Of a stretch of 64,000 nt of DNA, positions 15,788 to 55,406 are shown piece after piece. The notes below the pieces were generated by a model that was not told where the DNA came from, ran no database searches, and saw only the letters and a list, made by a program, of their open reading frames with translations. Position numbers and translations under genes: made by a program. Numbering within the stretch: position 1 is the stretch's first letter; each line of letters opens with the position of its first letter. This DNA is from a virus, in the IMG/VR virus record IMGVR_UViG_3300044797_000185, positions 1-64,000 of that record, one strand, 5' to 3'.

Positions 15788-16717
15788 ATGACAAATATTT
15801 ACATTCTTAAAGGTAACAATATTATAGAATCAGTCGTACCAGACTTTAAAGCACCAGTTATTAATAGTGTCCCAGTTGTTTATGTGAGCCTTAATAATCC
15901 TGTTCTTGCTTCTGCATCTACCTATGCTGTTCTAGGAGATACAGCAGTAACCAATACAGGAAATACAGTCCTAACTGGAGATCTTGGTATTTCCCCAGGT
16001 AATACCATCACTGGTTTTCCTCCTGGTACATATACAGGTACTCTTCATCAAGGTGATGCAGCAGCAGCTCAGGCTCATGCCGATGCAACAGCAGCCGCAA
16101 CAGCATTGAAAGCACTTACTCCTACCACAGATATTTCTTCAACAGATCTTGGTGGAGCAACACTTACTCCTGGTAATTACCATGCAACATCAACTGGTAC
16201 GTGGAGTGCAGGTCCTTTGACATTAAATGGTGCAGGACAATATGTGTTTGTATTTGGTACAGGACTTACTATGCCAGCAAGTGCAACAGTGGTATTGGAG
16301 AATGGTGCAACAGCCGATAACGTTTATTTCGTAACTGGAACAACTTTCACCTTTGGTGCAAATTGCACAGTCAACGGAAACATTCTTGCAGGTACATCTA
16401 TTACATTCGCAGCTTCTAGCGTACTTAATGGAAGAGCCTTAACATATGGTCCCTCTGGGACAACCGTAACATTCCCAAGTGCAGGAACAGTAACGGTTCC
16501 TTCTAATTCTAGTACTTCCTTTAGTTACACTATCACAGCTTTAAATTCACCTTCAGCATTCTATGCAACGTATTTGCCATGGGATTTGGTTATTAATCAT
16601 AGTACTGGAGTAATTTCTGGAACTATTTTTCCTAATAGTGTTGGTGAATTTCGTATTCCATTAGAGGCTGTTAATGATGCTGGTGTAGGTTCAATGGTAT
16701 TAACAATCCAAATCTAA
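15788..16717 (+). CDS. Ice-binding-like (DUF3494) domain protein with C-terminal putative Ig domain
   Basis: YAVLGDTAVTNTG..GDLGISPG..ITGFPPG..DLGGATLTPG.Y..ADNVYF..NGNILAGTSIT; then FSYTITA...GVISGT. Confidence 0.85.
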   Translation: MTNIYILKGNNIIESVVPDFKAPVINSVPVVYVSLNNPVLASASTYAVLGDTAVTNTGNTVLTGDLGISPGNTITGFPPGTYTGTLHQGDAAAAQAHADATAAATALKALTPTTDISSTDLGGATLTPGNYHATSTGTWSAGPLTLNGAGQYVFVFGTGLTMPASATVVLENGATADNVYFVTGTTFTFGANCTVNGNILAGTSITFAASSVLNGRALTYGPSGTTVTFPSAGTVTVPSNSSTSFSYTITALNSPSAFYATYLPWDLVINHSTGVISGTIFPNSVGEFRIPLEAVNDAGVGSMVLTIQI

Positions 16718-16747
16718 ACCAATAGAATAGTTTAAAAGTTATATTAG

Positions 16748-16769
16748 ACAGGGTTCGCAAGAGCCCTGT
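16748..16769 (+). terminator. GNRA-capped hairpin after the ice-binding-domain gene
   Basis: ACAGGGTTC-GCAA-GAGCCCTGT. Confidence 0.55.
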
Positions 16770-53193: not shown

Positions 53194-53207
53194 AAAGGTA
53201 AATAATA

Positions 53208-55406
53208 ATGGCATTCTACGGATCTGGGATTTTTTATGGTTCTGGAAGTTTTTACATTGGGGCAACCACATCTGCTGCCCAGGGTATTCCTGTTGATCTT
53301 AGATTTTATAGAACAAGTCAGGATGGTATTTATGTTTTTTGGTGGGGGTTTGATCCTGCATTCATTAATCCCGCATTAGCGACAGCAGGTTTTGACTTAG
53401 AACTTGATACAGTTCCAACATTTAATTCCCCAAATTTAGTTGAATTTACACAAGTCACTGCCATCACGTTTCAAAATGGTAATGTTAGAAAAGGATTTGC
53501 TGTTCCCGTAGCAGCCCGTATTAATGCAACAGTACAGACTTGGTATGCCAGAGTAAGAACGCATACTCCCTCATTTATATCTGATTGGTCTGCAACATTG
53601 ACTTGGACTATACCAATGTCTGTTCAGCAATCTACAGCTGAAGCTTTAATGGAATCTTTACCTGATTATCATGTGTATGGTAAGGGGGATCTATTAAAAC
53701 CCGTATCTCAACGTAATTCTAATTTATGGGTTGTAGAAAATATGTATGGTAATCAATTTGATCAAGTATATTATACAAATTTTCTTACGCAAACTGATAA
53801 CTATGTAGATTTATGTGTAGATGAAAATTTATATGAAAATTTTGGTGTTCAGTTTAATTTTCCTAAACCAAATAGTATGCAGTACGTAGATTATCGGTGG
53901 ATTTTGATGAATTTGTATCTAGCTTCTTTAGTAGGCAGTACAAATGAAGCTATCATACTAACAGTTCAATCTTTTACGGGTGTTCCTCCTGCAATTACAA
54001 ATATTCGTGATATCAATAACTTTATTTTAACCACAACTCAAGATGCTCCTATTACACAAGTTCTTAATACGGCCACTATCGTATCTGTTATAGACGGTAC
54101 ACATTTATTAGTCAACAGCACAGTAGGATGGGTTTCTGGGGTTGCTTCAGATACAACAGCTTCTATTCCTTTTACAGTAGTCGAAGTAGAGGATGGTGTT
54201 CACCTAGTAGTTAATAGTACAGCTGGTATGACCGCAGGTGATACAATCGTTGAATCTGTTTTTTATACTTCTTCTCCATTCATTGATTCCACCCTAGTTG
54301 TTCAAGATGTTACTCCTAGTTCCCCTGTTTCTCCTCTTTTGACAGCTTCTACCTATGCTGTTTTGGGTGCTTCCACTGTTACAAATACTGGTAATAGTGT
54401 CCTTACGGGAAATTTAGGACTTTATCCAGGTACATCTGTCACTGGTTTTCCTCCTGGTACATTCACTGGTACAGAGAACATAAATAACGCAGCAGCCCAT
54501 ACCGCTCAAAATGATGCTATAGCAGCTTACACTACGTTTGCATCTATGGGAGGCGCAACTGTTCTAACTGGAGATTTGGGAGGAAAAACTCTTCTACCTG
54601 GACTTTATAAATATAGTAGTTCAGCAGGACTTACAGGAACTCTTACTTTAGATGCCGCTGGTAATGCTGGAGCTAAATGGATTTTTCAAATTGGTAGCAC
54701 ACTTACTACAGCTAGTAGTTCATCAATTGTTGTTATTAATGGTGGAAGTGCTGGTAACGTTTATTGGCAAGTTGGTAGCTCCGCTACCCTTGGAACAACA
54801 ACAGCATTTAAAGGAACTATCATTGCTCAAGCAAGTATTACGGCTACAACAAGTGCAGTTATTAATGGTGGACTTATTGCCCTTACTGGAGCAGTAACAT
54901 TAGACACAAATACAGTAACAGTTGTTCCTGGAACATCTTCATCAGGTCTTATAGTTCCTCCTAGTGCTTATGTGACAGATGGAGCATTGGGATATTGGAC
55001 TATGAGAGTTCCTACTACAGATACTTTACAAGCTACCTTTGATACAGGTAGTCCAATTAAAGTATTTGATGCTTTGCAGGGGGCTACAGTGTTATCTGGA
55101 CTTGTAACTTTTACTAATGGAAATAGTGTTATTTCTGGCTCAGGAACATTATTTTTATCTCAACTTTCTATTGGGCAAGAAGTTACAGATCCAAATGGAA
55201 TTTATCTAGGGACAATAGCCCAAATAACTGATAATACACATGCTACGTTGTTAGAGCCATGGCCAGGTCCTACCGAGGTCGTTACAGCTTACAGATTACT
55301 TTATACTGATACACAACTTCCCGTTCCTGTTCTATGGGATATACATACATTAGCTTTTGGAGTATTGATTACAATTTTTAATCCAGGAAACTTCCCACTT
55401 TTTTAA
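53208..55406 (+). CDS. Baseplate wedge (gpI/gp7-like) protein with Thr-rich module and DUF3494 domain
   Basis: N-terminal FYG..FYG; DYRWILMNLYLASLVGSTNEAI...SFTG; DUF3494 motifs at ~54330-54928. Confidence 0.65.
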   Translation: MAFYGSGIFYGSGSFYIGATTSAAQGIPVDLRFYRTSQDGIYVFWWGFDPAFINPALATAGFDLELDTVPTFNSPNLVEFTQVTAITFQNGNVRKGFAVPVAARINATVQTWYARVRTHTPSFISDWSATLTWTIPMSVQQSTAEALMESLPDYHVYGKGDLLKPVSQRNSNLWVVENMYGNQFDQVYYTNFLTQTDNYVDLCVDENLYENFGVQFNFPKPNSMQYVDYRWILMNLYLASLVGSTNEAIILTVQSFTGVPPAITNIRDINNFILTTTQDAPITQVLNTATIVSVIDGTHLLVNSTVGWVSGVASDTTASIPFTVVEVEDGVHLVVNSTAGMTAGDTIVESVFYTSSPFIDSTLVVQDVTPSSPVSPLLTASTYAVLGASTVTNTGNSVLTGNLGLYPGTSVTGFPPGTFTGTENINNAAAHTAQNDAIAAYTTFASMGGATVLTGDLGGKTLLPGLYKYSSSAGLTGTLTLDAAGNAGAKWIFQIGSTLTTASSSSIVVINGGSAGNVYWQVGSSATLGTTTAFKGTIIAQASITATTSAVINGGLIALTGAVTLDTNTVTVVPGTSSSGLIVPPSAYVTDGALGYWTMRVPTTDTLQATFDTGSPIKVFDALQGATVLSGLVTFTNGNSVISGSGTLFLSQLSIGQEVTDPNGIYLGTIAQITDNTHATLLEPWPGPTEVVTAYRLLYTDTQLPVPVLWDIHTLAFGVLITIFNPGNFPLF

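Follow-up and report, generated by a model that had tools for sequence, protein, structure and literature searches.

An uncultured large tailed phage encodes DUF3494 (PF11999, Ice_binding) domains in four proteins of its structural gene block, of which three carry the domain as an in-frame part of the tail sheath, a fibre-like protein, and a conserved tail protein, and the fourth is a small stand-alone protein that ends in an immunoglobulin (Ig)-like domain. The sequence studied is positions 1 to 64,000 (the window) of IMG/VR record IMGVR_UViG_3300044797_000185, which comprises 117,836 bp and has a completeness of ~61% by CheckV. The plus strand bears nearly all long open reading frames (ORFs), and the genes in the window form a head-to-tail morphogenesis block in the order portal, head, tail, baseplate, fibre, and collar. 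DUF3494 is the fold with which cold-adapted microbes grip ice. Here, we refer to the four proteins as A (head module), B (tail sheath), C (fibre-like protein), and D (conserved tail protein), and we report that their DUF3494 domains have the hallmarks of exchangeable modules in a lineage of related phages and that two of them closely resemble proven ice binders.

Results

Four proteins carry a DUF3494 domain

Using Pfam hmmscan, in which PF11999 has a cut-off of 28.7 bits, we found that all four proteins match the ice-binding model. The match covers residues 48-219 of 309 in A (138.7 bits; E 2.6e-40), residues 234-423 of 832 in B (191.1 bits; E 2.4e-56; profile positions 1-208 of 208), residues 323-494 of 816 in C (119.8 bits), and residues 385-571 of 732 in D (192.8 bits; profile positions 1-208 of 208). 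A search of the full record in all six frames placed the domains at 15929-16444 (A), 37637-38206 (B), 51709-52224 (C), and 54360-54920 (D), all without internal stops, and identified no fifth copy in the 117,836 bp. E-values across the copies range from 1e-37 to 1e-59, which is far past chance, and PF11999 was found in 0 of 14 control genomes. The matches are colinear with the profile, and the domains are therefore not circularly permuted. Based on pairwise identity, the domains fall into two subtypes, A/C and B/D; A and C are 66% identical, B resembles D, and the two subtypes are 42% identical to each other.

A first-pass annotation, made from the DNA letters alone, had described four DUF3494-type domains on four different structural proteins. 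With scores of 120-193 bits and positions at most ~40 bases from those originally given, the four domains are where that annotation put them. Their assignment to structural proteins holds for B, C, and D, in which the domain lies in frame within a sheath, a fibre, and a tail protein, respectively; for A, it is the gene position together with the Ig domain that points to a place in the virion.

The domains of B and D are close to two proven ice binders

EfcIBP and AnpIBP, for which ice binding is proven, share 42-55% identity with the domains of B and D, and the full-length alignments of the D domain have scores of 157 bits (EfcIBP, 6eio) and 146 bits (AnpIBP, 7bwx). Structure prediction, a check that the first-pass annotation had proposed, gave a concordant result: with AlphaFold2 (AF2) models of these two proteins, superposition on 6eio, 7bwx, and 7bwy yielded template modeling (TM) scores of 0.84-0.94. 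Using Foldseek, the B model aligned with ice binders at 42-49% identity and TM scores of 0.87-0.93, and the D model aligned with AnpIBP (7bwx/7bwy) at a TM score of 0.94, a root mean square deviation of 1.1 A, and 45-46% identity. In both AF2 models, a long helix lies within the strand stack (residues 275-292 in B and 428-446 in D), as in the discontinuous triangular beta-solenoid that typifies the family.

The ice-binding site of AnpIBP is located on the B face of that protein, and the substitutions S153Y and T156Y leave 17% activity (PMC7277481). S153 and T156 correspond to the first S and the T of the motif GSSATLG; B and D have this entire stretch unchanged, and A and C have the motif GTTFTFG, i.e., T at both positions. 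These residues were mapped by counting on the printed alignment with a six-residue tag offset, which also puts Y131 right. The nearest cellular homologues are 39-47% identical and, by their record titles, stem largely from soil, peat, and permafrost metagenome-assembled genomes (MAGs).

B is a contractile tail sheath with an inserted DUF3494 domain

B (832 aa) is encoded at 36938-39436 on the plus strand. Its DUF3494 domain (residues ~226-425) is nested in the variable outer N-terminal region and preceded by two ~30-aa repeats that start at 37229 and 37325. Four lines of evidence support the first-pass assignment of B as a tail sheath. The last 393 residues have 72 homologues, of which distant ones bear Phage_sheath_1 (PF04984) and Phage_sheath_1C (PF17482); a profile built from insert-free relatives of B matches the sheath of phage 812 (5li2) with an E-value of 1.2e-11; tblastn matched proteins annotated as tail sheaths in Tunturiibacter phage Tunturi_5 and Bacillus phage G; and in Foldseek searches with the AF2 model of B (mean predicted local distance difference test [pLDDT] score of 74, with the insert mostly >85), the insert matched ice-binding proteins and the remainder matched the phage 812 sheath, sheaths from contractile injection systems, and numerous viral sheaths. 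Based on these comparisons, B is a contractile tail sheath.

In an alignment with 565-aa sheath relatives, B has ~230 residues (~215-445) where the relatives have ~30. DUF3494 is therefore an add-on, and the variable region that holds it separates the N-terminal arm from the conserved core. The add-on domains of other sheaths face outward, and by analogy the insert in B is probably exposed on the outside of the tail. The first-pass annotation had gone on to describe the virion as apparently coated with DUF3494 domains; the domains are indeed on the sheath, and a coat is what the copy number of the sheath would predict rather than something observed.

The sheath orthologues P0010, P0051, and P0061 have another, unannotated repeat domain of ~100 aa at the same insertion point (alignment columns ~330-700), either alone or together with DUF3494. 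Judged from the aligned sheaths, the insertion site is a general hot-spot for add-ons.

C is fibre-like and D is a conserved tail protein

C (816 aa; 50743-53193, plus strand) is encoded directly 3' of the gene for Baseplate_J. Its DUF3494 domain is located mid-protein and flanked on both sides by Gly/Thr/Ser-rich fibre repeats, and its N-terminal 310 aa have homologues with and without PF11999, many of which are fibre or adhesin-like. The repeats, the gene position, and the N-terminal homologues are all in agreement with the earlier description of C as a fibre.

D (732 aa; 53208-55406, plus strand) is encoded by the second gene after Baseplate_J and consists of an fn3-like N-terminus, two repeats (starting at 54093 and 54192), DUF3494, and a conserved C-terminal domain of ~130 aa. 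The N-terminal ~280 residues are conserved and matched fn3 folds in Foldseek searches with the AF2 model (pLDDT 66). The D family profile matched the "Distal tail protein gp20" (23gd_B; E 8.9e-12) via the C-terminal domain, which aligned to the N-terminus of gp20; the C-terminal domain also had a weak match to an F2-pyocin side fibre. D had originally been described as a baseplate wedge protein, and our searches did not support this identity. For a wedge protein like P2 gpI or T4 gp7, the searches gave no sound match: 18 family members had no Pfam match, including to Tail_P2_I, Foldseek returned only fn3 folds for the N-terminus, and the lead to a wedge protein from the Atlas had a score of 0.78, which is below the reliable range. 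The position of its gene near Baseplate_J is the one observation that points to a baseplate role of D.

Searches against PHROGs yielded no match for A or B and weak unknown or minor-tail matches for C and D. Because PHROGs were uninformative, the identities of the four carriers were taken from the homologue series and profiles described here.

A is encoded in the head module

A (309 aa; 15788-16717, plus strand) is the product of a stand-alone gene located 2.7 kb downstream of the gene for the major head protein (12080-13075, plus strand; phrog_2522, E 2.2e-35), which anchors the head module that contains A. The protein consists of a short N-terminal segment, DUF3494, and a C-terminal He_PIG domain (DNA ~16502-16705). 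The He_PIG match (PF05345; residues 234-309) has a score of 27.4 bits against a cut-off of 24, supporting that A is Ig-linked as noted in the first-pass annotation. The N-terminus of A, as read by eye and without a signal-peptide predictor having been run, is short and has no evident secretion signal. DUF3494 proteins are characteristically secreted or cell-surface proteins with a signal peptide; the phage domains, by contrast, sit inside structural proteins. The gene position and the phage-typical Ig domain suggest that A is a virion component. A 309-aa orthologue of A is present in the complete relative G004, and no gene for A was found at its locus in G013, one of three large relatives that are free of DUF3494.

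Upstream of A, a 196-aa protein is encoded at 14986-15576 on the plus strand, and its first ~100 aa form a domain that is shared with several paralogues in relatives. In the relative G007 (L162 529-3263), a 326-aa protein combines the N-terminal domain of the 196-aa protein with DUF3494, in place of the architecture of A. The shared ~100-aa N-terminus also opens fibre-repeat paralogues, i.e., a 548-aa neighbour in the same stretch of G007 and a counterpart in G004 (L159 2753-3910). The sequences suggest that, in the head module, this N-terminus serves as a common domain for attachment to the virion and that the tips joined to it are exchangeable.

DUF3494 domains are mobile among related phages

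Among the sheath homologues, DUF3494 is present in 14 of 66 (13 with the B subtype and 1 with the A subtype) and absent from 52. On a tree of the conserved sheath core, this distribution requires at least seven changes, of which four are forced by well-supported branches. Most orthologues in the D family are 465-500 aa long and lack the insert, including those in G013 and G018 (467-473 aa); in the remaining members, DUF3494 occupies one or both of two alternative sites and can belong to either subtype. With most orthologues of B, C, and D lacking DUF3494, and with the insertion site as well as the subtype varying, the modules are, by sequence comparison, swappable and mobile. Two DUF3494 domains in one tail protein, sometimes one of each subtype, were observed in the relatives G001, G002, and G007 and in P0080, P0088, P0178, and P0185.

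Using FastTree, we generated a tree of DUF3494 domains, 43 from phages and 86 from cellular organisms. The cellular set was chosen with the A subtype as the query, and the closest cellular relatives of the B/D subtype lie outside the sample. All phage domains in this tree fall into one of two clades without cellular members (22 rows, support 99; 21 rows, support 98). Carriers are mixed within both clades, and the D domain is placed among sheath domains. The picture that emerges is one of two old acquisitions, probably followed by shuffling among structural proteins.

Among related IMG/VR records, 13 of 26 contain PF11999, and all 13 have a copy in the sheath. Eleven of these 13 records have two to five copies on different proteins, and the two single-copy records are fragments of 22-23 kb. 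The complete genome of G004 (192,085 bp) has four copies, i.e., the orthologue of A, the sheath, and two large downstream proteins including the orthologue of D. Two records of a far more distant sheath lineage (33% identity) have three copies each, again with the sheath included, and three large close relatives with an insert-free sheath (151 kb, 180 kb, and a complete genome of 193 kb) have none. Thus, the arrangement recurs across a phage lineage of ~150-190 kb. The genomes are related and offer few independent contrasts, and this all-or-none coupling is therefore suggestive only.

Gene order and other modules in the window

The portal gene is located at 1885-3603 and is followed by an ORF for a 1211-aa protein with a prohead-protease part (7735-11370). 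The match to head maturation proteases in this protein is confined to residues ~80-190, and the ORF may encode a protease-scaffold or a protein in which internal head proteins are fused to the protease. In tblastn searches, the best cultured matches of the major head protein were from Bacillus phage G (29.5% identity) and cluster C-type mycobacteriophages (~24%); by this measure, the nearest cultured phages are remote from the phage analyzed here.

The genes for tail proteins begin at ~35 kb. Directly upstream of the sheath gene, a 456-aa tail protein (35424-36794, plus strand; phrog_8763, E 1.7e-6) has a C-terminal He_PIG domain (PF05345, E 8e-8). For the 176-aa ORF that comes next after the sheath gene (39487-40017), no match to a tail tube was found in PHROGs, Pfam, or a PDB sequence search. 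The baseplate region (48347-50730), in which we found matches to phrog_975/120/43 and phrog_6, encodes a gp25-like wedge subunit (48347-48850, plus strand) and Baseplate_J (48862-50730, plus strand; PF04865, E 7.1e-22). Downstream of D, a tail fibre protein with a Collar domain (56779-58641, plus strand; PF07484, E 1.2e-14; several tail fibre/collar PHROGs) marks the end of the fibre module.

A motif scan revealed that a ~30-aa repeat with the consensus DxTHLxVxSTxG accompanies the modules in four tail proteins. On the plus strand, copies start at 36423 in the 456-aa tail protein, at 37229 and 37325 in the sheath, at 50056 in Baseplate_J, and at 54093 and 54192 in D. The repeat matches no Pfam family, and its copy number differs among the D-family orthologues (0, 2, 4, or more). 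It has the look of a small mobile decoration module, the second one after DUF3494. The structural block also encodes a 900-aa protein (27764-30466) with a six-bladed Kelch beta-propeller (Kelch_6, E 3.7e-34) and, beside it, a 387-aa protein with an fn3 domain; the Kelch and fn3 domains are likely further surface modules. The block is interrupted by three homing-endonuclease genes, two of the GIY-YIG type and one of the HNH type, which are interspersed among the structural genes of the head and tail modules (13168-13806, 34243-34839, and 41086-41994).

Discussion

In the explanation that we favor, the DUF3494 domains are swappable decoration modules that have been spliced in frame into the sheath, a fibre, and a baseplate-side tail protein and that are also present in a small Ig-tagged protein of the head module. 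In the assembled particle, the domains would point outward and display many copies of a flat, Thr/Ser-lined beta-solenoid face. We consider it very probable that they are outward-facing multivalent binding modules. With ice as the ligand, the particle would attach to grains of ice or to the film of liquid that covers them, ice recrystallization would be hindered locally during freeze-thaw, and the virions would thereby be kept intact and close to their hosts in seasonally frozen soil or peat; such a benefit to the phage is conjectural. We rank ice first among ligands because the domains are close to EfcIBP and AnpIBP and retain the tested ice-site residues, because their spread over the whole particle, including the sheath and the head-side protein, is unlike that of a receptor binder, and because many of the nearest cellular homologues come from MAGs of soil, peat, and permafrost. 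If the domains are displayed as proposed, ice is the likeliest single ligand, and we see the arguments for it and against it as balanced. The explanation as a whole, i.e., outward decoration modules with ice as the most likely ligand, is accordingly put forward tentatively.

Several observations weigh against this explanation. The comparison of the ice-binding site covers two residues rather than the whole face, and many of the nearest cellular homologues are from temperate soil surveys. A is a putative rather than an established virion component. A phylogenetic control of the coupling between the sheath and D modules had two to three independent contrasts and gave p = 0.5. The positions of C and D, within the fibre and baseplate module, are the usual phage sites for host-recognition modules and the home of receptor binders. 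Moreover, DUF3494 is also known from substrate-binding proteins and from temperate organisms (PMC12337378). Several of these points are in line with outward modules that bind a ligand other than ice, such as host exopolysaccharide or capsule, cell-surface glycans, or soil and mineral surfaces. Such modules could hold phages in the host matrix in the manner of Ig and carbohydrate-binding decorations or, on fibres, act as receptor binders for first contact; that they travel with the He_PIG Ig domain, fn3, and small decoration repeats, that the shuffling of subtype and position recalls host-range cassettes, and that close cellular homologues are common in temperate soil MAGs are all consistent with this idea. 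However, a non-ice ligand does not readily account for the 42-55% identity of the B and D domains to proven ice binders with the tested ice-site residues kept, a receptor binder would be unexpected on every sheath subunit or near the head, and the fold is without a known ligand-binding pocket or catalytic motif. We regard a ligand other than ice as possible but somewhat improbable. We are similarly doubtful, without dismissing it, about a more far-reaching version of the ice explanation, in which the lineage evolved an ice-binding particle whose coordinated set of DUF3494 domains confers ice adhesion and freeze-thaw resistance and is gained or lost as a block according to habitat.

Two further explanations do without a displayed binding function. 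The domains could have no external ligand and serve as rigid beta-solenoid filler that stabilizes or spaces the sheath lattice and the fibres, similar to dispensable outer sheath domains. The unrelated inserts at the same point of the sheath in P0010, P0051, and P0061 fit with this idea, as does the observation that most relatives thrive without any insert; but one fold on four unrelated carriers, which is absent from all of them in other relatives, is hard to square with stabilization of a lattice, and both subtypes are close to functional ice binders with every copy seen intact. Overall, we consider filler unlikely. Alternatively, the DUF3494 proteins could be auxiliary gene products that give the infected host freeze protection and are not parts of the virion, which is how PF11999 genes on Arctic viral contigs have been read (PMC11515562). 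A is a stand-alone gene, as expected from an auxiliary gene; yet, it sits in the head module, has no evident secretion signal by eye, and has a C-terminal Ig domain of phage type. For B, C, and D, this explanation fails because the domains are in-frame parts of structural proteins, and we judge it to be highly improbable.

How virions survive freezing, and where they are located in frozen soil, peat, and ice, is poorly understood. An ice-binding-type fold on ~100 or more sheath subunits as well as on fibres would make the question of freezing testable by simple assays, and the series of presence and absence among close relatives provides natural controls. If true, an ice-binding particle would represent a structural antifreeze or ice-adhesion function without precedent among viruses. 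If the ligand is not ice, DUF3494 would gain a new, non-cellular role, and annotating viral PF11999 genes as auxiliary genes that protect the host would call for caution. Finally, a sheath that tolerates a 200-residue beta-solenoid insert is useful for the engineering of phage display.

The DUF3494 family, add-on domains on sheaths, and virion decoration domains are each already known; their combination, DUF3494 on several virion proteins, appears to be undescribed. In agreement with the first-pass statement that no characterized phage is known to have this arrangement, tblastn searches of 50,697 GenBank phage records with the B domain and protein A returned no match, although the low-complexity filter may hide weak ones, and, in a collection of 8.4 million papers and preprints, we found no description of such a display among those on DUF3494 or ice binding in combination with phage, tail sheath, or virion. 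Distant homologues have been reported in Synechococcus phage S-SKS1. In a Foldseek search of the viral structures in BFVD, we identified DUF3494 folds in three proteins of the giant virus Hyperionvirus (A0A3G5A745, A0A3G5ACG7, and A0A3G5AEI1), one of which is 51% identical to the B domain, and none besides these. Thus, unrelated virus groups have taken up the domain. The Hyperionvirus proteins belong to the same family as the phage domains but are uncharacterized and have not been described as parts of a sheath, fibre, or tail. Similarly, the PF11999 genes on Arctic viral contigs are of the same family but are separate genes that were interpreted in terms of host cryoprotection (PMC11515562).

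Among cellular proteins, EfcIBP (6EIO) and AnpIBP (7BWX/7BWY) share the family and the fold with the phage domains, are colinear with them, and likewise lack an extra cap segment. They differ in being free, secreted proteins of a bacterium and a fungus, respectively, whereas the phage domains have no evident signal peptide, lie in sheath, fibre, and tail proteins or are joined to an Ig domain, and have a putative ice activity. SfIBP_1 of Shewanella frigidimarina (6BG8) carries DUF3494 on an Ig-domain stalk for surface display, which resembles the architecture of A, and IBPv (5UYT) has tandem DUF3494 domains, as do some relatives of the phage analyzed here; both, however, are bacterial cell-surface or secreted proteins rather than virion parts, and their identity to the phage domains is 31-35%.

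Among virion proteins, the sheaths of phage 812/phi812 (5LI2) and Bacillus phage G (gp178) have a core that is homologous to that of B. Variable add-on domains outside the core are a known habit of sheath proteins; those two sheaths have no DUF3494 match, whereas the add-on of B is from a family known for ice binding. Ig-like, fn3, and carbohydrate-binding domains that decorate virions, e.g., T4 Hoc, are dispensable, shuffled, and thought to be weak multivalent adhesives. They, too, are additions to structural proteins, and the phage described here has He_PIG and fn3-like domains alongside DUF3494; the DUF3494 module differs from decorations of the T4 Hoc type in its fold and in that it is found on several virion parts at once.

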